DNA of 64,000 bases from Giardia intestinalis (Eukaryota). Where the stretch lies: the NCBI GenBank assembly GCA_000002435.2, contig CM018793.1; one strand, 5' to 3'. Below are positions 4,334 through 54,954 of this stretch, piece after piece (position 1 is the stretch's first letter; the number at the start of each line of letters is the position of its first letter). The position numbers were made by a program, and so were the translations under genes. Below the pieces are notes generated by a model. The model did not search any database. It was not told where the DNA came from and was given only the letters and a program-made list of their open reading frames with translations.

Positions 4334-6451
4334 ATGTCTATTAAATCCACTTACAGGCCTCCAATTTCACTTCAGCACTCCGCAAACAGGTATGTTATAG
4401 AAACGAACAATCCAGCTCCTCCGACCCTTTGTTTAGACGACCGATCTACCTACCCAATAAGTCAGCATGCGAGGACAACTAAGTATGCGAGTAAAACACA
4501 AAGCCACGAACAAGGGACGAACAGGTCCACTAAGCCTTCTGCATCCATGGAATCGTCTTCAATGACGTCCTTTCTGAAGGCCAAAAGCTCAAGGGAACTA
4601 GACATCAATGGACACATCTGTCCAGATTTGGAAGTTGACAAAATCTCTCTAGAGGCTGGTCACCCGCGAAAGAGAAGTAAGGTGTCTGTTGCGCTGCCCA
4701 TTGTATCCTCGGCTACTAGAATCTGCTCAAGCTTAAGTAAAGCTCAGCCACCGGAAAATCTCTTGAACACTCCAATCGAAGGTCTCACTAAGTCTCAGGA
4801 CGACTCTTCGGTTGACAGCCCACTTGACAACGATCGGCTAAATCAGGGGACAGCGTCCCTCAATAGAATCAATCAACTGCTTCCTCAATCCGAAGCATCG
4901 CAATTGTGCAGGTCATTAGAAAAAAATAATAGTTCCTTCTATCCGGTACTTATTGATAAAGCCTCAAATACAATGGTGAACCACATGCAGACAGCCTGGC
5001 AGGCATCCCTTGAGCAGAAGTATTCACAAATTGACACAGATGCGAAGGACGCCTTACTTTCTTCATCCAATCCTAACGCCTCTATTGGTAGGCGTGATAG
5101 GTATGTATTGTCAGTCGAACAATTCTTTACTCGAGAAGGAAAGGGGATTAACGGAAGGTGTAGAGTGCATGGTGACACTATTAAATCTCCAACAGGTGCA
5201 GGGTCCTGTGCACACCCGAGAGCGACAGCAGTTGATAGAGCCTTGGGAGGTACCCTTTCCCTATCTGCCCCAGGGGATTATTGCGGCCACCACAAACTTT
5301 GTAACAGTATCTATTCATCTGCACGCGAGCATAACGAGCAGCATCACCAGTCTCTGATCGAGGCACCTCTGTCTCATCTTGTTCCGCAGCGACCATATAC
5401 AGCTCTCAATAGAATCCCGCATGTTCTTAGTGATCATATGAAATTCTTGCAAGAACCTAGGAAGCGTGCTATACGTGCACTTATAAAATCTCTTCCTGCC
5501 ACTGTCAAAGCTAGTTCTATTCCTTTGAAACCCATTTCCGCAACCACACAACAACTCGGCTCCACTGACCCACCCATGCATGTACTGATCAATGGAGAAC
5601 AAGTCCCAATAACATATTCAACCGATGACTCCCCAGTTGTGTCCAAGTTGAGAAACAACTTCTCTTACACGGATTTAGAATTTACACTTGGTGCACATAC
5701 AAATTTGAATACTAGACTGAGGACAGAGACAAAGGTGGATACCAGTACACACCAATACCTGCAAAAGAGAGCCACGGAGATAGACATAGCCCAGCAATCA
5801 GAAAAGCTAGAGCAATTAGAGCAGCTAAAGCAATCACCACCCAAGCACCAACTTGATAGCAAAGATACACGAGCACAGAAGCGTAGCATATTGATTAACA
5901 ACGTTTGCTCAGTGCCATTGAGGGCATCACCAACGAAGAATCCTTTCTGTTCACCCCTTAACTTCTCAAATGTCGATAGTGACGAAGACTGCACACATAC
6001 GTGCAATTCGCTGAGTGATTTATTGGACAATTCGGTAACTAAGCAAAGAACGACGAGTAATATATTAATTTTGAAAAGACGCGAGGATGTCTTGAAAAAC
6101 GATACACTGCGCAGCATAGCCAATAGCTTAAAGAGTTTAGAAGCCATGCAACAGACACGAAAGTCTAGTAGATCCTTTGCTAAGGCCCAGCAAAACAGTG
6201 TCACCGAGATCCTCCCTAGTTACAAAGAAAACACAACGAGAGTACCCTCACCACACTCTCCGCATTCTCCAAGGAAAAGAGCGGGGGAGCACAATAGCCT
6301 TGAGAGGACACTCCATCTAAAAGACTTAGCAATGCAATCGATGGGCCTGGAGCCTACGCAAAGCTACAACAACTGTGCACCCATCAATTCTGTATCTTCA
6401 GCGTTTCCACAAACTGCAAAGAGCACGCGTTTCTTCACCTTCAATGCTTAA
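4334..6451 (+). CDS. Ser/Thr/Pro-rich low-complexity protein, lineage-specific hypothetical
   Basis: 705-aa ORF with a true ATG preceded by an A/T-rich box (caaaatttgagaaaatctccATG). The composition is biased (S, T, N, Q, P) with no TM segments or catalytic motifs. A long uninterrupted frame in a compact genome is itself evidence of coding. Confidence 0.5.
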   Translation: MSIKSTYRPPISLQHSANRYVIETNNPAPPTLCLDDRSTYPISQHARTTKYASKTQSHEQGTNRSTKPSASMESSSMTSFLKAKSSRELDINGHICPDLEVDKISLEAGHPRKRSKVSVALPIVSSATRICSSLSKAQPPENLLNTPIEGLTKSQDDSSVDSPLDNDRLNQGTASLNRINQLLPQSEASQLCRSLEKNNSSFYPVLIDKASNTMVNHMQTAWQASLEQKYSQIDTDAKDALLSSSNPNASIGRRDRYVLSVEQFFTREGKGINGRCRVHGDTIKSPTGAGSCAHPRATAVDRALGGTLSLSAPGDYCGHHKLCNSIYSSAREHNEQHHQSLIEAPLSHLVPQRPYTALNRIPHVLSDHMKFLQEPRKRAIRALIKSLPATVKASSIPLKPISATTQQLGSTDPPMHVLINGEQVPITYSTDDSPVVSKLRNNFSYTDLEFTLGAHTNLNTRLRTETKVDTSTHQYLQKRATEIDIAQQSEKLEQLEQLKQSPPKHQLDSKDTRAQKRSILINNVCSVPLRASPTKNPFCSPLNFSNVDSDEDCTHTCNSLSDLLDNSVTKQRTTSNILILKRREDVLKNDTLRSIANSLKSLEAMQQTRKSSRSFAKAQQNSVTEILPSYKENTTRVPSPHSPHSPRKRAGEHNSLERTLHLKDLAMQSMGLEPTQSYNNCAPINSVSSAFPQTAKSTRFFTFNA

Positions 6452-6476
6452 ATATATTTATTCACATCGGGCTACT

Positions 6477-8006
6477 CTACGTACTGAAATTGTCAGTGTT
6501 AGTCATGCTGTAATCCCTAGAGTTTGTCACTGCATTATCATAAAAGGAGTGCTCTCCATTAAAGCTGTTGAGTGCGTCATCCTTTTTCTTAGCTTTCTTG
6601 CTCCCTGAAATTGGGCACATAAACTCAGCAAAAAGAGCACACACCAAAAGGTGATTAAAGTGCAACATGTCGTATGCTCTAAGCCTCCCTGGATGCCAAA
6701 TCACATAGACTATGCTGGTTAACAAAATTAAGCTCTCCCATATGATGCAGAAGAAAGTAAGATAGTAGACTCTCTTGGCATCTATATACACCTTAGTCCT
6801 GCGCATACAATCCATCATAAGAAACATCATAATTAATGAAACAACATACGTTACCGTAGCAATGGCAGCAAAGACGTAAGAGGACGCTGTGTAGGATTTG
6901 CCCAGAGCGGGATCAATGTGGCAAAGCGTGATAGACGCAGACCCGATTGCTGCAAAGATGGGAGTCACAATAACTGGTATTTTGCCTCTAAAGAATGAAA
7001 GGAGCCTCACTAGCTGCACAAACTCGTTAGGGATAGAAACAAGAAGATGTCTGCACGCCATTAGTAATAGAGTAAGAGATCCCACGATCGAGAGTTGCTC
7101 CAGGGCGGAGTTTGCGATGATGTATTCGAATGTGTCATCAAAGTACTGCAGTAGGGAAAGCGGCGTAAAGGAGAAGAGAGCACAGAGTGACATCCAGATG
7201 GAAAGCTTGGAGAAGAATGGAAACTCTGAGAATCTCCCAGGCCACGATAGGCGAAGCACCCAGGAGATATGAATGAATACCGCGGCCCCGATAGCCATGC
7301 CCACGCAGATGAGAACCACTGAAAGAATGCCGCTTTCTTTGGGTCCGGGAACAACTTCAAAAAAGATAGAACTTACAGCACTGGGGTTAGAGAACAATAA
7401 CGTCGAAACCTCAAGCTTGTAATAGTTCTCGTCAATCCCATCTTTTTTATAAAAGAAAACATTTGATGGCTTGGACTTCGGGCCACGGTTATTCAATTTT
7501 TTAACAAAGAATGTTCTCTTTTCTAGAAGTTCCCATGAATCAGGAGAGTCTTGAGCGTATGACCAACCCATCCATTCGTGTTCGTGCAGATCCCGGTGAG
7601 ACGGAGGAGATGACGGGTCGGTGTCATCATTAGAGGTGCCTCTACTGACCGCCCCAAGGGTTTTCGTCTTGTAGATAAAGTAGGTCATGTTGAGGCTTAT
7701 TTGTTCTGTTAAGTTTAGCTTCATTCGAAAATCAATTTCTCTACTGAACGGAGAAAAGGGGCCGAAGATCATCGAAAAGGGTTTTGCCGGGGTTGGATTG
7801 CTTCTGAAATCTTCGCCAGCACAGAGATACTCGTTGAACGGAACAACATTACGGGGACATAGATCTGGGGATACCGAGTAGAAGAATCCATGATAAAAGG
7901 AGATGGCTATCGTGCCTGCAATTGCACCCAGGCCCAGCAGCAACGCCCCGGCCACCAGGGATGCACATGCACACCGCGAAAGCTTCTCCATCCTCGAAAA
8001 AGTCAT
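6477..8006 (-). CDS. Seven-transmembrane protein with an ~220-aa N-terminal ectodomain, LUSTR/GPR107-GPR108/TMEM87-like (putative)
   Basis: 509 aa. The ATG is preceded by aattaaaaacttcc. It has an N-terminal signal anchor (LVAGALLLGLGAIAGTIAISF), a ~200-aa hydrophilic domain with N-glycosylation sequons, then 7 hydrophobic helices (ILSVVLICVGMAIGAAVFIHI ... FNHLLVCALFAEFMC) and a Lys-rich cytoplasmic tail. This topology matches the Lung-7TM-receptor family. I inferred homology from architecture only. Confidence 0.55.
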   Translation of the reverse strand: MTFSRMEKLSRCACASLVAGALLLGLGAIAGTIAISFYHGFFYSVSPDLCPRNVVPFNEYLCAGEDFRSNPTPAKPFSMIFGPFSPFSREIDFRMKLNLTEQISLNMTYFIYKTKTLGAVSRGTSNDDTDPSSPPSHRDLHEHEWMGWSYAQDSPDSWELLEKRTFFVKKLNNRGPKSKPSNVFFYKKDGIDENYYKLEVSTLLFSNPSAVSSIFFEVVPGPKESGILSVVLICVGMAIGAAVFIHISWVLRLSWPGRFSEFPFFSKLSIWMSLCALFSFTPLSLLQYFDDTFEYIIANSALEQLSIVGSLTLLLMACRHLLVSIPNEFVQLVRLLSFFRGKIPVIVTPIFAAIGSASITLCHIDPALGKSYTASSYVFAAIATVTYVVSLIMMFLMMDCMRRTKVYIDAKRVYYLTFFCIIWESLILLTSIVYVIWHPGRLRAYDMLHFNHLLVCALFAEFMCPISGSKKAKKKDDALNSFNGEHSFYDNAVTNSRDYSMTNTDNFST

Positions 8007-9381: not shown

Positions 9382-12300
9382 ATGAAGGCGCTTTCGCTTT
9401 CGCCATCAAAGGTTGAGTTTTTGGGTGTAACCACCGGCCGTGTTTATACCAAAGCAGTGAAGATTATTAATGTATCAAAATCATCGATTAAGGTTCGCAT
9501 GAATGCCCCCACCACAGAGAGCTTTCGCCTTCAAGCAGACGTGGAGGCTAATCTACCTCCCGGGCTCTCTCAAACAATCCACATCTCCTTTTATACAGAG
9601 GACACTGTAGGGTCTGAGTACCACGACTCTGTAGTAATATACTCAATGCACGAACAGCTTGAACTTCCTCTGTTTGCAGAAAAGTGCAGGCCTCACTTGT
9701 TCCCGGACACTTCTCACCTCTCTTTTGGCAATCTAATTCCTGGATACCCCATTACCAAGGACTTGGTGATCACGAATAAGGGAACAGAAGACGGACAGTT
9801 TACTATTAAGATTGATGCGAGTGAAGAGGAGTTTGCCCGAGGGTCTCAGAGCGATATTCCCCCGCTGTCTAAAATCTTGTCCTTCAGCACTATGACCGGG
9901 AGAGTGCCGTGTGGGAAAGCCGTCACTGTGCGTGCGACAATAGTTTGTAACAAAACTGGCGCATACCGCGGAATTGTTCGGCTTATTGATCAGTACAAGA
10001 GCGAAGAACTCATAGATGTTTCGTGTAGCATCATAGAGCCAGGACTGGTATACTATCATTACTTAGACGATCTCTCCAAATCTGAGGCAATTACAAGCAA
10101 ATTTTCCACTACACGGCTATCTACTTTTGAGACCAAGACGTTTGACCCCGACGATCCTCGTTCTAAGCCCCGAACTCTTGTCCCTCTAGACATTTGGAAA
10201 TGCCAGGCAATCTTTCAGGAGGAGACTACCAAAAAGATAGTTGCACAAAATGTCTCACCATATGTCATGAATTATGAGTTTCAAGTGGAAGTTCGGGACA
10301 AAAAGCCACTTTGTGACATCGGGAAGAAAAAGCTTAAGGCAGGTGAAACAGAAGAAACTGTCGCTGCAGCGCAAATGTTGGAGGACATAAGCTTTATACG
10401 CATTGAGCCCTCTGCAGGTGTTCTGCAGCCCGGTGAAAAGGTAGAGATTCAACTCACGTTTGCTCCTCGACTAGACCTAAATCGCATCGAGCGTGTTTGC
10501 AGGTTCATGAGCAATACAACGCTTAGGGAATGGCGACGCATCTTCAGCTTTGTCGCAAAGCAGGGAAAAAATAAGGGAACCACCAATACAGATGATGATT
10601 CAGACCTGGACTCATTTGACACGACTCTAATTGAGAAGATGAGCGATGACGAGCTGAAGCAATTCGGTACCGAGTTCCGCTTCTTCAAGACCAATTTAGA
10701 TAACATAGCATACGTATACGAGGTCAGGACAAAGTGTTCGGCGTCCTCTCTTCATAAGACCTTCACAGATGCAACGTTCTTCAGCGTTAGCGCCATGGCT
10801 ACCCGTCCTCTGGTCTCTATCTCTGATACGGTTATGCACTTTTCGGCCGCGCAGGCCCAGAAGAACTTTTCGGTCAAGAATGTTTCTGTTGAACGCGTGA
10901 AGCTTCGTATTGTTGCACCATCACCATATCACATAGATGATCCCCTGAATCACAACGAGCTAACGACGTTCTTACTCCCTAAGGAGCAACGGATCTTCTA
11001 CTTGTTCTACAATCCAAAGTCCATGACCGCGTTTAATGATTATATGTATCTTTACTTGGGTGAAACAGACTACTATCAGGTTACAGTTTCGCTAGTAACA
11101 AATAAGGACAAGGAAATGACAACAAGGTTGAAGAATGTAAAGGCTGTACTGGACACCGGAAACAAAAGAACAGTAGAAGGCATGGCGTTGGGAGACCGGA
11201 AGCTCCTCAACGCAACAGAGCTTAAGAAATACAAGGAAGAGCAGCGGCTTGCCTGTGACAAAACCTATAATGCCAACAAGTTGAAAATTGCAGGAAAGGC
11301 CAAACAAGAAGGTCGGAGGACTCTTGCCCAAGGGGGGATGGCTGCCGAGTCCAGCAAGTTGTACAATTATAACAGGATGTATCTGGACAAGGATAGCGAT
11401 TCTAGCGAAGAAGATGACGCAAAATATAAGACTATCAGTCAGACTGGAGAGCTGAGTACCTCAGGACTAGCTGGTGCTACAACCAAGCAACCTGGGATGG
11501 AGAGGGCTATGGAGGTATCCAGCTCGGCAGCCAAACCGTCAGCTAAGCTATCTTCGTACAACGATGCACTGGATTTAGGGATGGAGCCGGAATACGGAGA
11601 TAATGACTATGACAGCAACTATTGCAACAAGCGCAAGAAGTCTAGGGTAGCTGAGGAGCTAGATCAGCTAGATAGAGACCATGGAACTACAGTTGTGCTC
11701 CAACCAAAGAAAAGAGCGACGTTGGCAAATGACACAACAGCACCAGTAAAGCTCTTTGGGCCTTCCAACTATGATAATTTAGAGCTCCTAAGAATATCTC
11801 AAGACATCAAGGAGTTATCCACTCGTGAGCTGGCGCTTATTTCAACTGGACCAATGGCCTTTGACTTGGGAACAGTCACCGTTGGAACTAAAGTCGTCAG
11901 GTACTTCAAAATTGCAAACGACTTGAAGAGCTTTATCAAGATTGAGCTCAAGACAACGCAGAGAAGCGTCAATGATGAGAAGCAACGGAAGAGGGAGGTA
12001 GAGCTTGTCGAGGATAGCTCCTCTGAAGATTTCATGCCTGGAGAAACTCTTCCTTCTGACCTCGGGTTCCAGCTAGGTGTGCCAGATATGAAAAAGCTTA
12101 AGCAGCCTCCTGCAACCGTTCCGTTGTCGAGCGCTAGGGCACAATCTGTACCGAACCTGATGGACCGACCGTCTGATGGAGGAACAGATGCTAGAAGCAC
12201 ATTTGTACACCAAATAAGTCCGCTCAAGGCTGCAAAGGTTGAGGTGCAGCCGTACATTCAATACCTTCCCCCGGGATCAATGGCTGGCTTCCCGATTAGT

Positions 12301-15300
12301 ATCAAATTTGTTAATATTACGCCGAATTATGCAGATATCATTAAAATATACATTAACGACAAGGAGTATGGCGTCATTAATCTGACGGCCTCCATAAAGA
12401 AGCCGACGCTTCGGCTCAACATAAAAGCATACACTCAACTCAAGGAGGCCAGGGACCTCATAGAAAAGTATGCCAATTTGTTAATGCGGAGTACGAGCGA
12501 CAGAGGACGCGACGAACGCGAGAGGGATGCTTCAACTCCGATTAGCGCAAGCACAACTCAATTCAAATCTCAGATGATGTCCGATATTATTTACTTTGAG
12601 CTGACACCTGCAAACATATACGACAAGGTTATTCAGAGAAACATTTCCATTATTAATACGGGCACAGCCCCAACAGCATTGGCCTTGGCTGTCGGTGCAG
12701 ACTGTGTCTTTTCACGAAACTGCGTCGCCGGAGGAGACTTCCAGGCGCAGCCACTTTCCATTTCTGGATCGTATAGCAATAGCACTGTCACCGAAGGCCT
12801 CAAGAAGAGCTCCAGCTCTGCATCCATAACTAAGGCTAGCACCGTCGTTCATTCAGCAGTTGACGTATTCGCACTGAGCGAGACTGAAGTCAAAAACTTC
12901 CAGAGCGAAAGTAACAAGTCGGTGCTCCTCACGTGGTGTCCTTCTAATGCAGAGATTACCGCAGGAATCTTAACCATTCAGGCGACTAAGGCCGATATGC
13001 TATATGTGCCAGTAATTGCACATCTTCTGCCTGGCAAGGCCTCCTTTCTCGAGAAGTTCATTGACTATGGTCTTATTAATATCGGAAAGGTCTCACGTGT
13101 CTCTTGCACTATTGCAAACAAAAGCACAGAGATAGAGTGCTACTTTGAGCTTGTAGAAGATGACATAGTCAGTGCGTCAATTACAGAGCCGGGAAGGAAT
13201 CATCTGACGGTTGACGTCACGCGGGGCCGCTTGGGTCCTGGTGAGCGGTTACAGCTCCAGGTCAGCCTTACTACCAGGGTGTTGGGGCCTGTATCGACCA
13301 AGCTTTGCTTCAGAATTATTGGGGGTGAGCAGATAGAGCTGCCTGTCAGAGCACTGGTGGAATCACCGCAAATTATTGTTAGTGAAGCCATTGAGGGCCG
13401 GTCCTCCCTCACAGTCATGCCTTCTCCAAGCATGATATCCATGACAGGAACCGTCTGCTCTTCTCCTGGGAAAAGCGTGACAAAGAGCAGGACAACCTCT
13501 CGGCAATCCAAGCAAAATCCCCATGGGTCTCCTGCAGGCTCCCTTGGTGGAACAAACAGGGTGAAAGTCAAGTGTCAAAACATTTTGCCCGAATCTGATT
13601 CTGAGTCTGAGGACCTAACATTTACGCAGCCTCTTCTTATATCTCCGTCACACATTTCATTCAATGAGGGCGTGACGCAGAGCATACCGACTCTCAAGAA
13701 GTTCAAGGTAACCAATGTAAGCCGAGTTCCGGCAGACCTATTTGTTGATTGCACTCTTTCTCAGTACATAACCCTCGTCTCTGAAATTGGAGTAAGCGAC
13801 TCAGGTGGTGATGCAGGGGTTATTAGTACATTGATTACTAAGAATGACCTATTGGAACGGTTTCGTTTATTAAGTGACACACACATTCTTCAATCTTTTC
13901 AACCGCTGAAAGCATCCCAAGACGTGGAGTACAGTCTATCAACCTACATCAATGAAAACTCTGGTCTTGGAGTCACAGAGTCTCTGTTGCGTGCTCAGAG
14001 CAAACTTGTTGATAGACTTGCACAAAAGCACAATCTTCCCGTCTTTCCTGGCACTAATGATATCGACTATCAGTCATACACTGCATCTCTACTCAACCTA
14101 AATGAGATTCCAGACATTGATGGCAGCGGAAAGCTAAAGCAGCCATCAGAACTCATGGGTGTATCATCGTCAAATGCAGATTACAACCGCGTTATGCACA
14201 TCTATATACCTCCAGGCTCCTCCACCACGCTGATCATGTCCATCCTTGCTTTGGACCAGAAGGCAGCTGTCAATGACTGCGTGTTCTTTTACTTGCTAGG
14301 ACAGACTACATGTAGTGAAATACTATCTGATCCTTCATCCATTTCTGTGCAGAAGTCGGCTCCTTCGATTGGATCCGATGTGGGGGTAAGGCGCGCGTCC
14401 CGCAAATCCTCAGAAATCAACGCGGATGTATTGAAAGAGCTTGACTCCTCCTTCCTTCCTGCCTCCCGCAAGTCTGTTAGGGAGTCTACCGGCAAATCAG
14501 AGTCTACACTGAACACACTGAAGGCTGTTGCGGGCGGTAAAGAGCTTTCAAACGTACTTATCTTGTCATACAGTATTACGCCGGCAGCTATATTCACAAG
14601 CACCTCCCTGGTGAACTTTGGCATTAAAGTCTCCGATTCGTCGTACAAGCAGAGCGTCGCAGTTTATCCCCCCATGTTTAGGGACATCTTCCAGAAGCTT
14701 CTGGCACATACCGGTTTTGGTGGCCCAACGACTGGTTCGGGCGACGAAAGTGCAGCAACATCCCTGGCGGGCACTACCGAGCTTTCTGGGGACCGGTTCC
14801 ATGCTATAGCGCGGGAGCTACCCTTTATTTCACAGATGGCTCTTTCGGGCCTTTACTATCAAGACGTTAATCTTATCAATCAGACTAATAAGGTGATTCT
14901 TTTTGTAGCGCTGGTCACAGACTATAATGATCAGCTGCTATCAACAAAGCTGTATGCCCTCAATCAGCCGTTTGGGAAGATACAACCTTATGACAATGTC
15001 AGCGTTCGTGTCTTCTTTTCTCCTACCAAGGTCGGTGTACACAATGCCAAGTTAAAGGTTTACTACATGGAAGTGGTCACCGGTGACGGTGAAGCATCAA
15101 CTCACTCAGAAGCTGCACCGGCTTCCAGTGAGCAAAAAACATTGGCATTCTCTAATGATATTAGTAATACACCTAGAAATATGAGCCCAGAGATAAGTTT
15201 CTTCTGCAATAAAGGATTTGTGCTCAGCAACTATCTGACAATTCACTTACAGAGCGTCGCGGTTTTCCGCACAATAGCATTCTCGGCCAATCCTGTTATC

Positions 15301-18300
15301 TTCCCTAACACTGCTGTTGGTGTCCCATCTCGTTGCCTATTCTATATCCGCAATCTAGGGTATAAGCATAACGTGAAGCTAACCATTACGTTCCCACCGG
15401 AGCTGTCAAAGATAGCGTTCTGTGTCATTTGGCCCCTTGGAAACATCATCAATCATATGATAAAGACCCTCCCTGTCCTGATAACATTCATAAGCAACAC
15501 TGTGATGAGCTTCTCAAGTCGGTGTGTGATTTCAGATGATACTGGCACCCCGTATAACTTGACAATTGGAGGCAACTGTGCAAATGATCCGTATCTATTA
15601 CGGGAATATCTCCGGGTCAACTCCAAGCGCTTACAGCAATCTACACCTTTGCAAGCACTTGCTCAATCTGCTGCTCTAATGGAACCAAGCGTTGATGCAT
15701 CAGCTGACGGATTTCAGAAAGAGTTCTATGACTTGGTGCCTCGCAGCGTAGACCCGTACTCATTGACAACTCCGGAATTTGGCATCTATCACAGTTATAG
15801 TCAGTTGACGGAAATCTGCAAAGCAGATGAGACAGACCCAATCTTGCGTAAGTATGGGCTAAACAAAAATGTCTTGCTGGCTTTGGAGAGTATCAACTGT
15901 AACACTCTTGTTGAGTTTAGCGAATATAGCAAGGCCCTTGGTCTCGAAGAGGTCTTCCATAACATACAGAATAAGAAAGACGCTTTTCTAGCTGTTGGCG
16001 TGTCTCCGTGGGACGATGAATCCATTGCAAGGGTAAAATCCTTTACTCTGATCAACTACACCTCAAAGAAGCCTGATGCACAGCCCCTAGGAACAGACCG
16101 CAGTGACAAGCAAAGCAGCACCAGAGCGTTGGGCTCTACCAAGGACAAGCAAAAGTCTCTCTTCCAGCACATCAGGCGGATGGTCTTCGGGCCATATGCG
16201 ACCACGGAGTACCCACGCTATTCCAACGCTAACAACCGTCTCGCATTTTACTGGCATTTTATCTTTCGTACTGTAGGGCTGAACTCCGAATCTTGCCTAA
16301 CACCCTACATTCCCTTCATCCCAGATGTTGTGGGTCTTTCTACAGAGAATAACATTACTATCAGCTTCATGATCCAAACCCTCTATTTGCTGCTCAATCT
16401 TCGACTCAATACTAACCTCCCCTTCCCTGCGCAATTCACACAGTCTACTTCAAAGACGTCGCCGTTTCTGTTATGGGCGTGTGGAATCCTGAAGAAGGAT
16501 ATTAGTATCAATCCGAAAACACTTCAGAACCTACCATCTATTAACAAGCTTCGAGTGGAGTTTCTTCATTCGTGTTATGACGACATGCTGACTGCCTTGA
16601 AAATCAATGGCGCCATGCTCAACAACATACCATGCGAGCTGCTCATGGCACGGGAAGACTTTCTCAACTGGTGCAAGTGGTCAATTGCAAAGGTGTCGAG
16701 AAACAGTTACACGAGTGCGCTTGCTGATGTAGTTAATTTAGACCAACAACCACCAGGAGACAAGGATGTTGGAAGACCGCACGAAAAAAGTGCAAAGCTT
16801 CAATCTAGCGTGCACAATAAGATGAAGCACTCAATAGCCCCTGCTGCTTCCGTCCTGCCTACAGATGAATTTGAGCCTCAACTGGTATCGCCCATGATTA
16901 CCCAAACAAGCTCTCTCGTTATTCTCGATATCCTCCGGGCTGTGCACGAGTTTTCACACCGCTCTGCCTGGTACTTTGTGCTAAGCGAGCTTGTCAGGCT
17001 TTTCATTTTGAACACAACCTCAAATGCAAAGGTTCTCGAGGCAAATATCCAAAAGCACAGGGTCTGGGTGAGCAACGAGGCAATTGAGTTTGAACTAAGC
17101 AAGGGCATATTTGACATAAAGTGCCAGAAGGAGTCTATAGCAGATTTCTTCGCCAAATTTGATGCATTTTCCAAAGCCACTAAGCTGAACGAGAACGGAT
17201 GCTTGCTTTATCTCTTCACGTACCACGCGTCCTACATGATACACGGAACCGAATTTCAGGAGATTGTAGTTAATCAAAAGTACACAGCACCAGCCAAGGC
17301 TGATATAAAGGACAAGAAGAACATTGTTACTCGGTCGCAGCTAGCCTTGCAGAAGAGCACAAAAAGAATCGTCCAAGATTCTGCTATTGATACGCTTGCT
17401 GGGACCTGCAAGGAAGAACCCCAGGGGTCATTATCTCCTCGTAGGTCTGCCAGGGGGACGCCGAACTTCTACGTGCTTAAGTCTTCACGGGCTCTGTTCT
17501 CAGGGCTTGAAGTGGGACTTACAATTCTTAGCCACTACCCTTACTGTGATGGAATCCGAAGGCGTGCAGAGGAGCTCATGAACGCCTCTGTTGCTATTGC
17601 AAAATCTTTCTTGGAGCTAGGCATCTCCAACTTCACACCGGACTACATTTTGAATCTAAAGATCAAGATCCCAGAACTCACAGACAGGATGTTTTCTGCG
17701 CTAGAATCTGCAAGATCTGCACTATGGTTGGAGATTGAGCAATTCCTTCGCCTTGAGTTTAATATCAGCCTTTTACCCTCAAGCTTGTACATGACAAGCC
17801 CCTCCTCGACATTTGACTACTCTCACAACGTTGCATACACAAACGCACTAGCGACAAATCATCAGATTCTTGCGACTCTGCTCTACCAGGTTCTGCCGTC
17901 ATATCTTCCATATAAGGCTCTTCGCGTCTTATCCAACTTAGGAGACACAGTCACACAGCCTCTAGAGGTCTCTAATGTTATGAAGTCGTCTTCAATAAAG
18001 TATAAAACCAGCATTCTTTACCCACGGAGTGACGACGTTTCTGCAGGTGGGCCTAGCTGCGAAATAAAGCTGAACACAAGCATGTTGACGATCGAGCCAC
18101 GTATGTCGTCGACTCTCTTCATCAAAATGACGCCCCGCTTCGCAAAGCCCTGTGTGGCGCTGATCGGCCTGAGACCTTCATATGAGGTTTCTTCCCAGAC
18201 CTCTTCAGGCTCCTTCTTGGCACCGTCCTTTGTTGCAGTGGTCATCGAGACAAATGACACCGTCCCTGTGAAGGTTTACGAGGTAGAGTCTAAGTGTCAG

Positions 18301-21300
18301 CAGCAAGCGAAGATTTCTATAGATGTAGACAATAAAAATGGGCTTGAAGCAAACTACAAGATCCGCATTACCGAGAAGTTCGTTGCGCTTGATTCTGCGT
18401 CTTTATCGGCAAGCGTCAAGCCCAAGAAGGTGTTTGGATACATGGAGCCCCTGACCACCCAAGCAGCAAAAACAGTCAACCCAGCTGATAAGAAGGTCCC
18501 CGATACCGTTGTGCAACCGCTCTGTGGTGTGACAGTCTCTCCCATTGCTTTCAAGACCAACGAACGGTCTCTTAACATAAAGCCCAGAGGGCGTCAGGCC
18601 ATGAACCTGTACTATATGCCGACGCATCCAGGAGCGTATATCGCTTCGGTTATATTTGAAGATGCTAATTTGGGCTCGTTTATGTACGAGTTGCGCGGGT
18701 ATAGTATCCTCCCAGATATTTCTCACACGTACAACATCAGCTCTTTGGCCACGGAATCTAGGACTTTCAATATAGATATAAACGACCTACTTGGCCACGA
18801 CCTTGTACACAAGTATGTTAACCATGAGCTAAAACAAGTTGTGGACACCAAGCAAACAGATGATGGTAAACAGGCACAAATGATCCAGCTGACGTCATCT
18901 ATAGACCCTCTTAACAAGGTTTTCACCCTTAAATATGTTAGTAGACCCAACGTTGAACCGGATGTGCACGCCTTCCGCTTTTTGATCGCTACAGACACGT
19001 TCACCAAGCAAGGCCTAATTTATCTTAACTTGCTCAAGCGTCAAGAAGAGATCCAGATGGAGATGATTGTACCGGCGAGGGAGACGGTTTCTCAGAAGTT
19101 GCCCGTTAGGAATACGATGGACAATGACTGCCTTATGAGTGTGACAATTACAAGTCAAGGCCAAAATGCGTTGCAAAGGGCAGGCCGCGGAGGAGCCCAG
19201 AAGCAACAGCTATCTAGCCTTATCAGTTACTTCTGGGTTAACGGCCAGGCAATGACTGATGGGGTGCCATTTACGATGTTGGTACGGCCTCATGACTCTC
19301 CATTCATCTTACTAGAATTCAAGCCTAAGTGGATTGCTCTGTTCAATGCTAAATTAGTGATTGAAAATAGCACTAAGGATCTGCTCGTAGACGAATACCT
19401 CTTGAAGTGCCAGGCAACAGAGCCGCTGACGTCCGGAATCATCAATCTAGAAACTGTCGCCATGGAGCCTGTTGTCTATAAGTTTACTATCAGCAGTCCT
19501 CCACTCCTTGAGACTGGTCAGGCTTCTAATTTGCAGCAGCAGCAAGCCCAGCAACTCACTAGGTATACAGTATACTTACAGGACAAGAAGGCTGTTTTTG
19601 AGCTTTCTCACTCATCTTTCGACCTGGCTCCAGGAACTTCGCAGGTTGTTGAACTTCGTGGCTTTTCTCCATGCTCTGGACAGTCGAAAAACATCCTTTT
19701 CATCCAGAACAATGGGACCAATACCTATGAGTGGTATGAGGTTGTTCTCCATGTGAAGCCACGCGAATGCAGTGGTGTCGTAGAGTTGCAAACGTCGACA
19801 AATCTCAACGCCCGTCACGAGTTCTCTATCACTAACACACGTTCAGACGTTTATGCAAACGTGAATGTTGAGGTTATGAACATTCCGTACTATTTGCTGT
19901 CTTTCAGCCCGTCTATGCAAATTGAGCCGGGAGATACCCAGTCTCTTATCCTGAATGTTAGGCCTACCTGTCGAGGGGTGCTCAAAGGCGTGGTTATCTT
20001 TAATTCTATGGAGCTGGGGGAGTTTTGGTATGAGCTTGTCGTGACTTGTAACGAACTAACTGTGAAGGAAGAGACAATATACTCTTTACTTTCTGCCCAA
20101 GTGAGTAGTAAGATCATGATTGAAAATCCAAATCCCACCACTGCACTAACTTATACAATTGAAAACTCCAACCATAATGCGTTCACCTCCCATCCCAAGT
20201 CATCCTTTATCGTCCAACACAGCAGTCAAGAAATAGTGAAGATTAACTACCGTCCAACAAAAGTCAATCTCCCCGAGATAGGAGAGTTCTATGTCTCTGG
20301 GGTGGATTCAAAGGGTGTTATCCAGAGCGAGTACAAGTACGTCTTTCGCGGAATCGGGCAGATGCCGAAGGAGCAAACAATCACTAAGATCTATGCAAAT
20401 GTGGGGTCGTCCAATGCCGGTGTGGTGACGTTCAAGAATCCCTTCCTTACAAGTTCACTTCTTCGCTTCGAGTACGAGAACTCACCCGATCTCCAATTTA
20501 ATATTCGGCCTGAAATGATTATTCAGCCATTTTGCGATGTGCAGCTTCCGTTTACTTTTACGCCCAAGTCCCTGAAGCTAGTGAAGGCGAAGTTTCTAGT
20601 ACATGTGCAGCAACTTGCCGACACTGAGGCAGGAATAGACACCGCCGAGATTCTTAAGATGGGTGAGGAAACCTTCACAACGCTGCTGAACAAGTCTGAA
20701 GTCTATACTTTTACATATCCGATTGAGGCAACTGCAGAGATAGTTCTAAACGAGACCTTTGCCTTTATGGCGTGCTCCGCCAGGAACAGTGTTTCTGTCA
20801 GTAAGCCAGTACCATTCGATTCTCTTGCGCGCTATTCTGCAGGGGATATGTCATTCTACATTGAACCTATTGATACCCGGACCCTTAAGCCAGACTCGGC
20901 TTTCTACATTGCGCAGAAGTCGATACAGTTCTTTTATCGGCCCAGCGGCTCTATGTCTCCCTCTGGGTCTACTAGGCTGCCCCAGGTTCTGGGAGGGATA
21001 GGTAGTGCGCCGCAGATTTCTCTTTCCTTTACCCCCATGAAACCTTTTGCATGCGACGTTAACATGATAATTTCCATCCGCAATAGTGGACGGTATAAGC
21101 TTCCTCTCCAGCTGGTAGCAAATACTCCAAAGCCAGAAGGGACAATAACAGTCGAGCTGGCCAACAGCAACACTGAGGGCGAATATATTCTCAAGATATG
21201 CAATATTTACAACGTGTACACAGAGTACAAGGCATCATTCAGCCCCACGTCTTCCGAGCGTTTTTCTGTTTCTCCGTCGTCGGGGATACTCGAGCCAGCA

Positions 21301-21486
21301 CAGCCAGCAAACTTAAGCAATCAGAAAATGACTCACATCCGGATTTCTTGTAGCCCAGGAAGTAGCCAAGCTAGAGGACAGCTCTTTGTAGAGACTAAAG
21401 ATGTCCTTTTCATATGGGATGTTATTAGTGGATATAAGAAGTACGTTCCGCCGGCGGGCGTTAGCAAGGTTGTGTGCCACGAGTGA
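9382..21486 (+). CDS. HYDIN: Giant hydin-like protein (ASH/MSP-domain rich; axonemal central-pair C2b projection homolog)
   Basis: 4034-aa uninterrupted ORF with a true ATG after aaaatgtaaaaattgaatcc. The N-terminus aligns position-by-position with the first ASH domains of human HYDIN as I recall them. SPSKVEFLGVTTGRVYTKAVKIINVSKSSIKVRM corresponds to FPSEIVFQNYTPCEVYEVPLILRNNDKIPRLVKV. DSVVIYSMHEQLELPLFAEKCRPHLFPDTSHLSFGNLIPGYPITKDLVITNKGTEDGQFTIK corresponds to HTLTCVTEREKFIVPIKARGARAILDFPDKLNFSTCPVKYSTQKILLVRNIGNKNAVFHIK. Further beta-sandwich-like modules (…L.F..V.VG…K.F.I.N.G….F.I) repeat along the protein. Confidence 0.72.
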   Translation: MKALSLSPSKVEFLGVTTGRVYTKAVKIINVSKSSIKVRMNAPTTESFRLQADVEANLPPGLSQTIHISFYTEDTVGSEYHDSVVIYSMHEQLELPLFAEKCRPHLFPDTSHLSFGNLIPGYPITKDLVITNKGTEDGQFTIKIDASEEEFARGSQSDIPPLSKILSFSTMTGRVPCGKAVTVRATIVCNKTGAYRGIVRLIDQYKSEELIDVSCSIIEPGLVYYHYLDDLSKSEAITSKFSTTRLSTFETKTFDPDDPRSKPRTLVPLDIWKCQAIFQEETTKKIVAQNVSPYVMNYEFQVEVRDKKPLCDIGKKKLKAGETEETVAAAQMLEDISFIRIEPSAGVLQPGEKVEIQLTFAPRLDLNRIERVCRFMSNTTLREWRRIFSFVAKQGKNKGTTNTDDDSDLDSFDTTLIEKMSDDELKQFGTEFRFFKTNLDNIAYVYEVRTKCSASSLHKTFTDATFFSVSAMATRPLVSISDTVMHFSAAQAQKNFSVKNVSVERVKLRIVAPSPYHIDDPLNHNELTTFLLPKEQRIFYLFYNPKSMTAFNDYMYLYLGETDYYQVTVSLVTNKDKEMTTRLKNVKAVLDTGNKRTVEGMALGDRKLLNATELKKYKEEQRLACDKTYNANKLKIAGKAKQEGRRTLAQGGMAAESSKLYNYNRMYLDKDSDSSEEDDAKYKTISQTGELSTSGLAGATTKQPGMERAMEVSSSAAKPSAKLSSYNDALDLGMEPEYGDNDYDSNYCNKRKKSRVAEELDQLDRDHGTTVVLQPKKRATLANDTTAPVKLFGPSNYDNLELLRISQDIKELSTRELALISTGPMAFDLGTVTVGTKVVRYFKIANDLKSFIKIELKTTQRSVNDEKQRKREVELVEDSSSEDFMPGETLPSDLGFQLGVPDMKKLKQPPATVPLSSARAQSVPNLMDRPSDGGTDARSTFVHQISPLKAAKVEVQPYIQYLPPGSMAGFPISIKFVNITPNYADIIKIYINDKEYGVINLTASIKKPTLRLNIKAYTQLKEARDLIEKYANLLMRSTSDRGRDERERDASTPISASTTQFKSQMMSDIIYFELTPANIYDKVIQRNISIINTGTAPTALALAVGADCVFSRNCVAGGDFQAQPLSISGSYSNSTVTEGLKKSSSSASITKASTVVHSAVDVFALSETEVKNFQSESNKSVLLTWCPSNAEITAGILTIQATKADMLYVPVIAHLLPGKASFLEKFIDYGLINIGKVSRVSCTIANKSTEIECYFELVEDDIVSASITEPGRNHLTVDVTRGRLGPGERLQLQVSLTTRVLGPVSTKLCFRIIGGEQIELPVRALVESPQIIVSEAIEGRSSLTVMPSPSMISMTGTVCSSPGKSVTKSRTTSRQSKQNPHGSPAGSLGGTNRVKVKCQNILPESDSESEDLTFTQPLLISPSHISFNEGVTQSIPTLKKFKVTNVSRVPADLFVDCTLSQYITLVSEIGVSDSGGDAGVISTLITKNDLLERFRLLSDTHILQSFQPLKASQDVEYSLSTYINENSGLGVTESLLRAQSKLVDRLAQKHNLPVFPGTNDIDYQSYTASLLNLNEIPDIDGSGKLKQPSELMGVSSSNADYNRVMHIYIPPGSSTTLIMSILALDQKAAVNDCVFFYLLGQTTCSEILSDPSSISVQKSAPSIGSDVGVRRASRKSSEINADVLKELDSSFLPASRKSVRESTGKSESTLNTLKAVAGGKELSNVLILSYSITPAAIFTSTSLVNFGIKVSDSSYKQSVAVYPPMFRDIFQKLLAHTGFGGPTTGSGDESAATSLAGTTELSGDRFHAIARELPFISQMALSGLYYQDVNLINQTNKVILFVALVTDYNDQLLSTKLYALNQPFGKIQPYDNVSVRVFFSPTKVGVHNAKLKVYYMEVVTGDGEASTHSEAAPASSEQKTLAFSNDISNTPRNMSPEISFFCNKGFVLSNYLTIHLQSVAVFRTIAFSANPVIFPNTAVGVPSRCLFYIRNLGYKHNVKLTITFPPELSKIAFCVIWPLGNIINHMIKTLPVLITFISNTVMSFSSRCVISDDTGTPYNLTIGGNCANDPYLLREYLRVNSKRLQQSTPLQALAQSAALMEPSVDASADGFQKEFYDLVPRSVDPYSLTTPEFGIYHSYSQLTEICKADETDPILRKYGLNKNVLLALESINCNTLVEFSEYSKALGLEEVFHNIQNKKDAFLAVGVSPWDDESIARVKSFTLINYTSKKPDAQPLGTDRSDKQSSTRALGSTKDKQKSLFQHIRRMVFGPYATTEYPRYSNANNRLAFYWHFIFRTVGLNSESCLTPYIPFIPDVVGLSTENNITISFMIQTLYLLLNLRLNTNLPFPAQFTQSTSKTSPFLLWACGILKKDISINPKTLQNLPSINKLRVEFLHSCYDDMLTALKINGAMLNNIPCELLMAREDFLNWCKWSIAKVSRNSYTSALADVVNLDQQPPGDKDVGRPHEKSAKLQSSVHNKMKHSIAPAASVLPTDEFEPQLVSPMITQTSSLVILDILRAVHEFSHRSAWYFVLSELVRLFILNTTSNAKVLEANIQKHRVWVSNEAIEFELSKGIFDIKCQKESIADFFAKFDAFSKATKLNENGCLLYLFTYHASYMIHGTEFQEIVVNQKYTAPAKADIKDKKNIVTRSQLALQKSTKRIVQDSAIDTLAGTCKEEPQGSLSPRRSARGTPNFYVLKSSRALFSGLEVGLTILSHYPYCDGIRRRAEELMNASVAIAKSFLELGISNFTPDYILNLKIKIPELTDRMFSALESARSALWLEIEQFLRLEFNISLLPSSLYMTSPSSTFDYSHNVAYTNALATNHQILATLLYQVLPSYLPYKALRVLSNLGDTVTQPLEVSNVMKSSSIKYKTSILYPRSDDVSAGGPSCEIKLNTSMLTIEPRMSSTLFIKMTPRFAKPCVALIGLRPSYEVSSQTSSGSFLAPSFVAVVIETNDTVPVKVYEVESKCQQQAKISIDVDNKNGLEANYKIRITEKFVALDSASLSASVKPKKVFGYMEPLTTQAAKTVNPADKKVPDTVVQPLCGVTVSPIAFKTNERSLNIKPRGRQAMNLYYMPTHPGAYIASVIFEDANLGSFMYELRGYSILPDISHTYNISSLATESRTFNIDINDLLGHDLVHKYVNHELKQVVDTKQTDDGKQAQMIQLTSSIDPLNKVFTLKYVSRPNVEPDVHAFRFLIATDTFTKQGLIYLNLLKRQEEIQMEMIVPARETVSQKLPVRNTMDNDCLMSVTITSQGQNALQRAGRGGAQKQQLSSLISYFWVNGQAMTDGVPFTMLVRPHDSPFILLEFKPKWIALFNAKLVIENSTKDLLVDEYLLKCQATEPLTSGIINLETVAMEPVVYKFTISSPPLLETGQASNLQQQQAQQLTRYTVYLQDKKAVFELSHSSFDLAPGTSQVVELRGFSPCSGQSKNILFIQNNGTNTYEWYEVVLHVKPRECSGVVELQTSTNLNARHEFSITNTRSDVYANVNVEVMNIPYYLLSFSPSMQIEPGDTQSLILNVRPTCRGVLKGVVIFNSMELGEFWYELVVTCNELTVKEETIYSLLSAQVSSKIMIENPNPTTALTYTIENSNHNAFTSHPKSSFIVQHSSQEIVKINYRPTKVNLPEIGEFYVSGVDSKGVIQSEYKYVFRGIGQMPKEQTITKIYANVGSSNAGVVTFKNPFLTSSLLRFEYENSPDLQFNIRPEMIIQPFCDVQLPFTFTPKSLKLVKAKFLVHVQQLADTEAGIDTAEILKMGEETFTTLLNKSEVYTFTYPIEATAEIVLNETFAFMACSARNSVSVSKPVPFDSLARYSAGDMSFYIEPIDTRTLKPDSAFYIAQKSIQFFYRPSGSMSPSGSTRLPQVLGGIGSAPQISLSFTPMKPFACDVNMIISIRNSGRYKLPLQLVANTPKPEGTITVELANSNTEGEYILKICNIYNVYTEYKASFSPTSSERFSVSPSSGILEPAQPANLSNQKMTHIRISCSPGSSQARGQLFVETKDVLFIWDVISGYKKYVPPAGVSKVVCHE

Positions 21487-52215: not shown

Positions 52216-52518
52216 ATGATCCCTCTAATTTTGCCTTGCTCTAATCACCTGACAGAGCCTTTGCCCAAGAAAGACGTTTTCAGCTTTGACTTGGACAGCG
52301 AGCGACTCTTGAGTTTTGGATGCCACGACCAATGCAGTGAAGAGCGAGACAGTCCAGATCTTCAAATTCCGACGAGAATGCTTACTGTTGAGGATACGCG
52401 AGACTATAGCTTATCATACCCTGGAGCCGCGGAATACTTGGAGACTTCCGTATATGATTATGATTTACTCGTGACTTTGGCAACCGACAAATTTAGGAAT
52501 CTAGCGGATTGTCACTAA
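52216..52518 (+). CDS. Small acidic hypothetical protein (100 aa), doubtful
   Basis: True ATG with an A/T box (aaaaatttagcggcaaATG). It fills the otherwise unexplained 388-bp gap between the giant gene's start and the PFK 3' end. I saw no recognisable motif (not verifiable offline). It could instead be the 5'-UTR/promoter region of the divergent giant gene. Confidence 0.25.
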   Translation: MIPLILPCSNHLTEPLPKKDVFSFDLDSERLLSFGCHDQCSEERDSPDLQIPTRMLTVEDTRDYSLSYPGAAEYLETSVYDYDLLVTLATDKFRNLADCH

Positions 52519-54223: not shown

Positions 54224-54319
54224 TTCAAATTGAGCCACACGCTAGCTAATTTTTGACCAGTTAATAAACAGGCAAGGTTTACAGGTGCCCGCAGTTCCAC
54301 CAATTCTATCTCAAACTCT

Positions 54320-54892
54320 TCATGTATGTCTCCATATAGCTGCTAGCAGTTCACGCCAGTCGTCTTGTGGATCTCCTGTAGCATAGACGACTCTTGATGC
54401 TTCGTTGGGAAGATCCTTAGCTAGTCTGGGGCTAAGCACAGTTCGCAGCAACTCTAATTCTTTTGAACGAGTGCTGACTACAATCTCGCATCCAATGGAA
54501 ACAATTTTAAGGAGTTTTAGAATATCATCTACAGTTTTATCCAGATCTACTGGACCTGCAATGTATACTACTAGCATTGTATGTGCTAAATAGACATTTG
54601 GGAGTGAATCAGCAATAGCCGAGTCTATATGACTTGGAGGTACGCACGCCACTCTGGCAATACAGTTTAAGAGGTGCACATACCCTGTGTTGACAAGGAG
54701 TGCAGTGTGTTGCTGATCATGAGCTGTGGTCATGTTTGTCAAAAGCCGGTAGACTGCGACTGAATCGCCATGTGCTCGTCCAAGGATAAGGATTGTGGGA
54801 ACAAAGCGTCGTTTCTTCACTGCTAGGCAAGAAACTACTAGAATCGTCAGAAGCAACGATTGCAAAAGAATTGTAACTATGGTTATGCCCAT
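54320..54892 (-). CDS. N-terminally membrane-anchored small GTPase-fold protein, divergent SRP-receptor beta (SR-beta)-like with a degenerate P-loop (putative)
   Basis: About 190 aa from the first ATG (MGITIVTILL; the track start is TTG). It has a TM helix (ITIVTILLQSLLLTILVVSCLAV) followed by KKRRF, then ILILGRAHGDSVAVYRLL (P-loop-like position but GxxxGDS rather than GxxxxGKS/T), VPPSH (cf. SR-beta DFPGH switch II) and STRSKE (cf. NKxD). The architecture matches SR-beta. The function call is an inference. Confidence 0.45.
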   Translation of the reverse strand: MGITIVTILLQSLLLTILVVSCLAVKKRRFVPTILILGRAHGDSVAVYRLLTNMTTAHDQQHTALLVNTGYVHLLNCIARVACVPPSHIDSAIADSLPNVYLAHTMLVVYIAGPVDLDKTVDDILKLLKIVSIGCEIVVSTRSKELELLRTVLSPRLAKDLPNEASRVVYATGDPQDDWRELLAAIWRHT

Positions 54893-54954
54893 ACTAATGG
54901 CCAATTATTCGATTTACTTTCATAAGCGGCAAGATTTATCCGTGAAAGAGCGCG

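Follow-up and report, generated by a model that had tools for sequence, protein, structure and literature searches.

The gene GL50803_28888 of Giardia intestinalis (assembly GCA_000002435.2, contig CM018793.1), which lies on the minus strand of the 64,000-nucleotide stretch analysed here (the window), very probably encodes a transmembrane (TM)-anchored pseudoGTPase of the Arf/SRbeta class, SRbeta being the SRP (signal recognition particle) receptor's beta subunit. Three ARF-related GTPases are reported from nearly all eukaryotes sampled, and SRbeta is one of them. On balance we lean towards reading the protein as an SRbeta paralogue that has diverged, works independently of nucleotide and serves as a scaffold in a membrane, probably that of the endoplasmic reticulum (ER), because the nearest relative that could be detected is again an SRbeta, from Spironucleus vortens.

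The open reading frame (ORF) list of the window gives 194 codons at 54320..54904, counted from a TTG. The first ATG, at 54892, yields the 190-residue product annotated as "hypothetical protein" (XP_001707506.1, GL50803_0028888, UniProt A8BDQ8), and the N-termini of the orthologues align to this ATG start.

54320-54892, minus strand: coding sequence of GL50803_28888, 190 amino acids plus the stop codon at 54320-54322, translation identical to XP_001707506.1

The in-frame TTG at 54904 adds four residues (window 54893-54904, minus strand); the resulting 194-residue form is found in two database entries (DHA2_150126 and one MetaClust record), the WB reference and most other entries having 190. About 35 nucleotides past the stop codon (54239-54319, minus strand) stands CCTGTAAACC, which we take to resemble, with one mismatch, the Giardia polyadenylation signal AGTRAAY.

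Orthologues, synteny, selection and transcript together establish that GL50803_28888 is a real gene and not a chance ORF. It occupies the gap between a TPR/STI1-type gene and the pyrophosphate-dependent phosphofructokinase (PFK) gene, both on the same strand as the ORF, with spacers of 62 bp and about 95 bp, and the gene order coatomer beta-prime, TPR-STI1, ORF, PFK is retained in the most divergent intestinalis-like lineage. Relatives in other G. intestinalis assemblages and Giardia-like lineages are 98, 83, 63 and 52% identical. Searched exhaustively by profile, a library of 1.84 billion representative proteins yielded one further orthologue, GMRT_10292 of Giardia muris (E 1e-7, 25% identity, likewise 190 amino acids), and, beyond the Giardia relatives, only two spurious matches to repeat or giant proteins; a word-indexed homology search with GL50803_28888 found Giardia relatives only. 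The product is a predicted single-pass membrane protein confined to the genus Giardia. Microsynteny with G. intestinalis is absent in G. muris and lends the G. muris orthologue no support, because the gene downstream there encodes a 547-residue protein lacking a Pfam match and not PFK. The neighbours of the orthologue in this G. muris region (CM016925.1, 1124909-1135481) are an ankyrin-repeat gene and this 547-residue gene, an order wholly unlike that of G. intestinalis, with intergenic gaps of just 3-6 bp. The ratio of nonsynonymous to synonymous substitution rates (dN/dS, Nei-Gojobori) is 0.22-0.24, as compared to 0.02-0.05 for the neighbouring genes; by this estimate the gene is under purifying selection, much weaker than that on its neighbours, and evolves faster than they do. 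ORF 28888 is listed among the hypothetical genes raised in 7-h encysting cells that contact intestinal epithelial cells (RNA-seq; log2 fold changes 1.9, 1.5 and 1.4, log counts per million about 5; PMC9094438). Literature searches with the gene identifiers returned nothing; this single RNA-seq paper mentions ORF 28888, and none was found on the nature of the gene. ORF 28888 does not occur in the part of the supplement to the structure-based Giardia annotation paper (PMC6312909) that was searched.

An initial annotation, made from the letters of this DNA alone, had described the ORF as a putative pseudo-GTPase version of SRbeta with an N-terminal TM anchor, a basic juxtamembrane KKRRF and an Arf-like core bearing a degenerate P-loop, an altered G4 motif and a residual switch II. 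Each of these elements was recovered in its expected place. The membrane-proximal features are as follows.

54818-54886, minus strand: N-terminal TM anchor, about residues 3-25 (ITIVTILLQSLLLTILVVSCLAV), from hydrophobicity and the helix of the first model
54797-54817, minus strand: basic juxtamembrane motif KKRRFVP, residues 26-32, running straight into strand beta1

The best 19-residue Kyte-Doolittle window covers residues 5-23 (mean 2.56), and the first full-length AlphaFold2 model has a helix over residues 3-26. The anchor is preceded by no charge and followed by four positive charges (KKRR), so that under the positive-inside rule it would be a reverse signal-anchor with a lumenal N-terminus and a cytosolic domain. 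On reasoning alone a cleavable signal peptide was dismissed: about 21 residues are hydrophobic, a positive n-region is missing and four basic residues follow, features that favour a reverse signal-anchor. KKRRF itself occupies residues 26-30, directly after the hydrophobic helix; all five lineages, G. muris among them, retain [KRQ]-R-F-[VR]-P, and in the alignment [KRQ]-R-F-x-P-T-I-L is invariant across the same five. The motif has the counterpart 'HRFVPRLALIG' in S. vortens SRbeta. A single N-terminal TM anchor just ahead of the G domain, which is a trait of SRbeta, is present here, with nine residues from anchor to beta1.

The soluble part was modelled separately, and the domain and its terminal helix were placed on that model.

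54326-54796, minus strand: small-GTPase-fold domain, residues 33-189, beta1-alpha1-beta2-beta3-alpha2-beta4-alpha3-beta5-alpha4-beta6-alpha5
54332-54358, minus strand: WRELLAAIW (residues 179-187), the C-terminal helix, modelled as alpha5

A first AlphaFold2 run (full length, 5 sequences) reached a mean predicted local distance difference test (pLDDT) of 51.7, and Foldseek found no significant fold match for it. The second run, on residues 27-190 with an alignment of 18 sequences, gave a pLDDT of 84.4 and a predicted template-modelling score (pTM) of 0.84; since its input consisted of Giardia orthologues only, this model is not biased toward SRbeta. Foldseek against the PDB (E<=1e-3) returned 702 matches for it, and the best 50 of these are all Ras-superfamily small GTPases (best E 5.5e-7), the highest TM-scores among these 50 (0.59-0.64) belonging to Gtr/Rag, Arl1 and Arl2. 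In a fold comparison of the model RagD scored 14.6, mouse SRbeta (2fh5_B) 14.1, Arf-containing chains 13.8 and 13.6, Arl2/Cin4 13.1, yeast SRbeta (1nrj_B) 13.1, Sar1 13.0, Arl13B 12.7, mammalian SRbeta (7obq_v) 12.6, Rab/Ras/Rho <=11.6 and a CheY-like receiver 10.5. The model shows residues 27-190 as a 164-residue domain with the predicted fold of the Arf/SRbeta/Sar/Rag branch of small GTPases, and it has both the Arf-like fold expected of SRbeta and the GTPase fold expected of a class-i pseudoGTPase. W179, E181, L182, L183 and A185 of the C-terminal helix are invariant within the G. intestinalis group, and Spironucleus SRbetas end in similar stretches, 'W(DI)RELV' and 'W(NI)NELL'. The alternative of a small, unrelated membrane protein whose domain is generically Rossmann-like or flavodoxin-like, or of a spurious ORF, has a next to negligible probability; it draws on the missing Pfam, PDB-sequence and distant database matches (the PDB sequence search gave a chance PriA match alone, E 0.21) and on the failure of the first, shallow model to match any fold.

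The elements that bind nucleotide in small GTPases are degenerate in this domain and map to the expected places of the fold.

54761-54781, minus strand: GRAHGDS (residues 38-44), a degenerate P-loop (G1) after beta1 and before alpha1
54701-54727, minus strand: loop equivalent to switch I, residues 56-64, variable alignment columns, pLDDT <50 at model residues 30-38
54629-54646, minus strand: CVPPSH (residues 83-88), the remnant of G3 or switch II where beta3 ends
54458-54475, minus strand: G4 remnant STRSKE, residues 140-145, right after beta5 in the model secondary structure

GRAHGDS is one residue short of GxxxxGK[S/T] and has Asp where Lys is expected; in the model it falls exactly between beta1 and alpha1, and it aligns with GQRGAGKT, the P-loop of S. 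vortens SRbeta. The lineages read GRAHGDS, GRAHDDS, GRAHDDL, ECERSDS and GTNEAAS at this position, none of them matching GxxxxGK[S/T]. At the G3 position, where VPPSH (residues 84-88) had been likened to switch II, the orthologues have CVPPSH, CIPLRH, CILPSQ or YIPRAK; DxxG occurs in none, Pro and sometimes His being left. C83-V-P aligns with D-L-P of S. vortens SRbeta in hhalign. D-x-P-G-H is found in 14/17 non-diplomonad SRbetas and D-x-P in 3/4 diplomonad SRbetas; Arf and Sar have D-x-G-G, and by this comparison the Pro at the third G3 position of GL50803_28888 is of the SRbeta type and not of the Arf/Sar type. The family has STRSKE, SAQSKD or SLLSPY at the G4 position, with [NT]KxD in none. 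NKxD is also missing in the four accepted diplomonad SRbetas and in parabasalid-like SRbetas (12/17 non-diplomonad sequences), and its loss discriminates poorly in metamonads because accepted SRbetas there lack it as well. Judged from the alignment, the G1, G3 and G4 motifs are lost in all five lineages, which shows a genus-wide loss of the canonical nucleotide-binding elements. GL50803_28888 is best classed as a class-i pseudoGTPase, putatively without nucleotide binding. Traits of the ARF family proper are missing from the GL50803_28888 family: Gly2 is not conserved, a TM helix replaces the amphipathic helix, and neither D-x-G-G nor a Pfam Arf match is present.

The protein might also be an atypical GTPase or NTPase that holds nucleotide or another phosphate ligand through non-canonical residues. 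Motif-less nucleotide binders exist, pseudoGTPase classes ii-iv being described by Stiegler and Boggon (2020, as cited in PMC13393502), and 4/5 lineages retain Ser44, which occupies the Ser/Thr position of the P-loop. We nevertheless regard this as improbable: the P-loop is one residue short, its Lys is replaced by Asp or Ala, its sequence varies even within the genus, and the G3 Asp and NKxD are missing throughout the family.

Whether GL50803_28888 is the SRP receptor subunit itself is decided by a second gene. An ARF-family survey found SRbeta in practically all the eukaryotes that it sampled (Vargova et al. 2021, PMC8358228); its supplement lists eight Giardia genes, with SRbeta assigned to XP_001704099.1, and GL50803_28888 is not among them. 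XP_001704099.1 is a separate TM-anchored protein of 202 amino acids with the P-loop GDAHSGKT. Its orthologues are 67-98% identical, and GDAHSGKT is present in 5/6 sequences examined, representing 4/5 lineages; its family aligns to the canonical SRbeta profile at 97.5% (hhalign, E 8e-12). In the remaining P-loop variant, that of the XP_001704099.1 orthologue P0048 of one Giardia lineage, GDAYSGTT has Thr in place of Lys. Within part of the genus Giardia the genuine SRbeta, too, may be giving up canonical nucleotide binding. Among the four accepted diplomonad SRbetas NKxD and the G3 Gly are missing throughout; three keep D-x-P, and SsaSRb2 has DFH. The P-loop of S. salmonicida SRb1 reads GLGQTCKT.

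A search for a canonical SRbeta elsewhere in the genome, which the initial annotation had recommended, thus leads to the P-loop-bearing XP_001704099.1, outside the window; tblastn searches of the window with the GL50803_28888 family and with the accepted SRbeta revealed neither a second copy nor an SRbeta. GL50803_28888 is not the Giardia SRbeta orthologue, the role being filled by XP_001704099.1. The proposal of an SRbeta pseudo-GTPase consequently holds for the Arf/SRbeta-class fold, the anchor and the motif loss in every orthologue, and fails as an identification of Giardia's SRbeta. The paradox of an unusual, nucleotide-independent SRP receptor does not arise, because XP_001704099.1 is Giardia's SRbeta and is encoded by a separate gene. 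The initial annotation had also held that a canonical SRbeta elsewhere, together with a match of this ORF to another family, would speak against it; the former exists, and GL50803_28888 matches no other family. That GL50803_28888 is nonetheless the functional SRP-receptor beta subunit of Giardia, working without nucleotide, is largely refuted and very improbable. It has the SRbeta-like architecture and predicted fold, and most microsporidian SRbetas also lack G boxes (PMC13393502), but the recognised SRbeta is XP_001704099.1, with its strong match to the canonical profile and its retained GDAHSGKT, and the canonical SRbeta profile covers only the anchor and beta1 of GL50803_28888.

The link to SRbeta comes from profile comparison. 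With the anchor included, hhalign of the GL50803_28888 family against the four diplomonad SRbetas gives 93% (E 3e-7, 171 colinear columns) and pairs the P-loop with the P-loop position, C-V-P with D-L-P and W..EL with W..EL; the full-length values are 0.3% for Arf and 4% for Sar1. Most of this signal is due to the SRbeta of S. vortens ("RSHRFVPRLALIGQRGAGKT"), which itself aligns to canonical SRbeta at 97.3% (hhalign). The next-best match of the S. vortens protein is the GL50803_28888 family (77.9%, 141 columns), as compared to 38% over 43 columns for the accepted Giardia SRbeta. A hidden Markov model (HMM) of the family scores S. vortens SRbeta at 17.5 bits, a value reached by none of 2000 segment-preserving shuffles in which the hydrophobic N-terminal segment was retained (maximum 12.6 bits). 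The match is not mere hydrophobicity, because sequences with the TM helix kept and the remainder shuffled score about -0.6 bits on average.

The alternative that deserves most weight is descent from another ARF-family GTPase, Sar1 or Arf-like, in which the amphipathic helix would have become a TM helix independently, nucleotide binding would have been lost and the resemblance to SRbeta would be convergent; we consider it possible, though a minority prospect. The full-length profile favours diplomonad SRbeta over Arf and Sar, RFVP...L-x-G and the C-terminal W..EL are common to S. vortens SRbeta with a score that beats 2000/2000 shuffles, and the G3 Pro is of the SRbeta type instead of the Arf/Sar Gly-Gly. 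Several observations weigh against SRbeta descent. Profile comparison, the check suggested in the initial annotation, gives a high value for the full-length family against diplomonad SRbetas and a weak, undiscriminating signal for the soluble domain: removal of the anchor lowers the hhalign value against diplomonad SRbetas from 93 to 24%, and the soluble domain alone gives 10% for S. vortens SRbeta, 8% for the Giardia SRbeta family and 15% for Giardia Sar1. Without the anchor, HMMER yields <=5 bits to every GTPase tested and cannot alone support homology. The canonical SRbeta profile gives 41%, with the anchor and beta1 alone aligned, and the exhaustive profile search retrieved no canonical SRbeta or Arf. 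The link leans largely on one bridging sequence, S. vortens SRbeta; both S. salmonicida SRbetas lack affinity for the family (0.1-2%, hhalign), and assignment to either paralogue failed. Other ARF-family proteins have gained N-terminal TM anchors independently (PMC8358228), and the expression shift of ORF 28888 is modest and comes from a single study (PMC9094438). A Pfam SRPRB match at E<=10 is likewise missing for GL50803_28888 and its orthologues; this is no evidence against SRbeta ancestry, because the accepted Giardia SRbeta also has no Pfam match at E<=10, and S. vortens SRbeta falls below the SRPRB threshold.

For the diverged SRbeta paralogue that we favour, the most likely origin would be a duplicated SRbeta gene in the diplomonad lineage, which is plausible because Spironucleus salmonicida has two SRbeta paralogues (PMC8358228 supplement). 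The anchor would hold the domain in the cytosol. If nucleotide is not bound, the protein would be fixed in one conformation and therefore serve as a constitutive, membrane-bound scaffold rather than a switch. It may reside in the ER membrane, as SRbeta does, and might there offer a constitutive, nucleotide-independent docking surface for the SRX domain of SRalpha or for another partner near the translocon, a role that would perhaps matter most as the secretory load climbs in encystation. A bolder and rather unlikely extension is a two-protein SRbeta system in Giardia, perhaps in diplomonads generally, in which a nucleotide-binding SRbeta works beside a locked pseudo-SRbeta that, independently of GTP, ties SRalpha or another longin/SRX-like partner to the ER and is expressed more strongly under the load of cyst-wall cargo in encystation. 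To our knowledge, the purpose of the SRbeta GTPase cycle is still poorly understood, and such a system, if true, would be a natural experiment on it. If GL50803_28888 is merely a fast-evolving scaffold with no link to SRP, it would be a further case of pseudoGTPase evolution in reduced parasites.

The identification also corrects an inventory: GL50803_28888 is a previously unrecognised relative, and because it is not among the eight genes of the survey, the set of small-GTPase folds in Giardia is larger than catalogued. What was a "hypothetical protein", with a reported response to contact with the host in encysting cells, thereby becomes a testable candidate for an ER or secretory function in a human pathogen.

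Elsewhere in the window, an ORF of 100 amino acids on the plus strand (52216-52518), between PFK and an ORF of 3118 amino acids, has no Pfam match on record and is syntenic in a divergent Giardia lineage (locus 6395-6697, minus strand; 68% identity, E 1e-48, no gaps). Its conservation at the syntenic position there makes a real small gene probable. Three uninterrupted giant ORFs together make up nearly half of the window.

9382-21486, plus strand: giant ORF, 4034 amino acids
32577-42830, plus strand: giant ORF, 3417 amino acids
42845-52201, minus strand: giant ORF, 3118 amino acids

Among known systems, GL50803_28888 most resembles SRbeta (SRPRB, PF09439), in which a TM helix is followed by a basic stretch that runs directly into beta1, and its 190 amino acids fall within the 177-202 of diplomonad SRbetas. 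Three features are common to it and S. vortens SRbeta: the RFVP...L-x-G motif, Pro as the third G3 residue and a W..EL helix at the C-terminus. Unlike SRbeta, it lacks the P-loop Lys/Thr, the G3 Asp and a Pfam SRPRB match, and it coexists with a P-loop-bearing SRbeta. The GTP-dependent binding of SRX described in yeast and mammals cannot apply to it, because the P-loop Lys/Thr and the G3 Asp are missing. Arl10-type proteins, as far as is known, keep functional G motifs, unlike GL50803_28888. Metazoan Arl10 is similar to the Giardia protein in having an N-terminal TM region in place of an amphipathic or myristoylated N-terminus (PMC8358228). Class-i pseudoGTPases such as CENP-M and the G domain of AAGAB (Stiegler and Boggon 2020) are soluble and belong to other branches, whereas GL50803_28888 is TM-anchored, belongs to the Arf/SRbeta branch and occurs in one genus only.

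A further parallel is found in the microsporidia, in which most SRbetas lack the G1-G5 boxes and ArlEM is a putative pseudoGTPase (PMC13393502, 2026). Similar to these proteins, GL50803_28888 is a highly diverged member of the ARF/SRbeta class from a reduced parasite, its GTPase motifs being mutated and its attachment to the membrane kept, and the microsporidian ones are read as possibly nucleotide-free class-i pseudoGTPases (PMC13393502). ArlEM is lipid-anchored, whereas GL50803_28888 is TM-anchored. In the microsporidia the degenerate protein is the sole SRbeta; in Giardia it is encoded in addition to an SRbeta that retains the P-loop, so that nucleotide-dependent and putatively nucleotide-independent SRbeta-like proteins are directly comparable in one cell.
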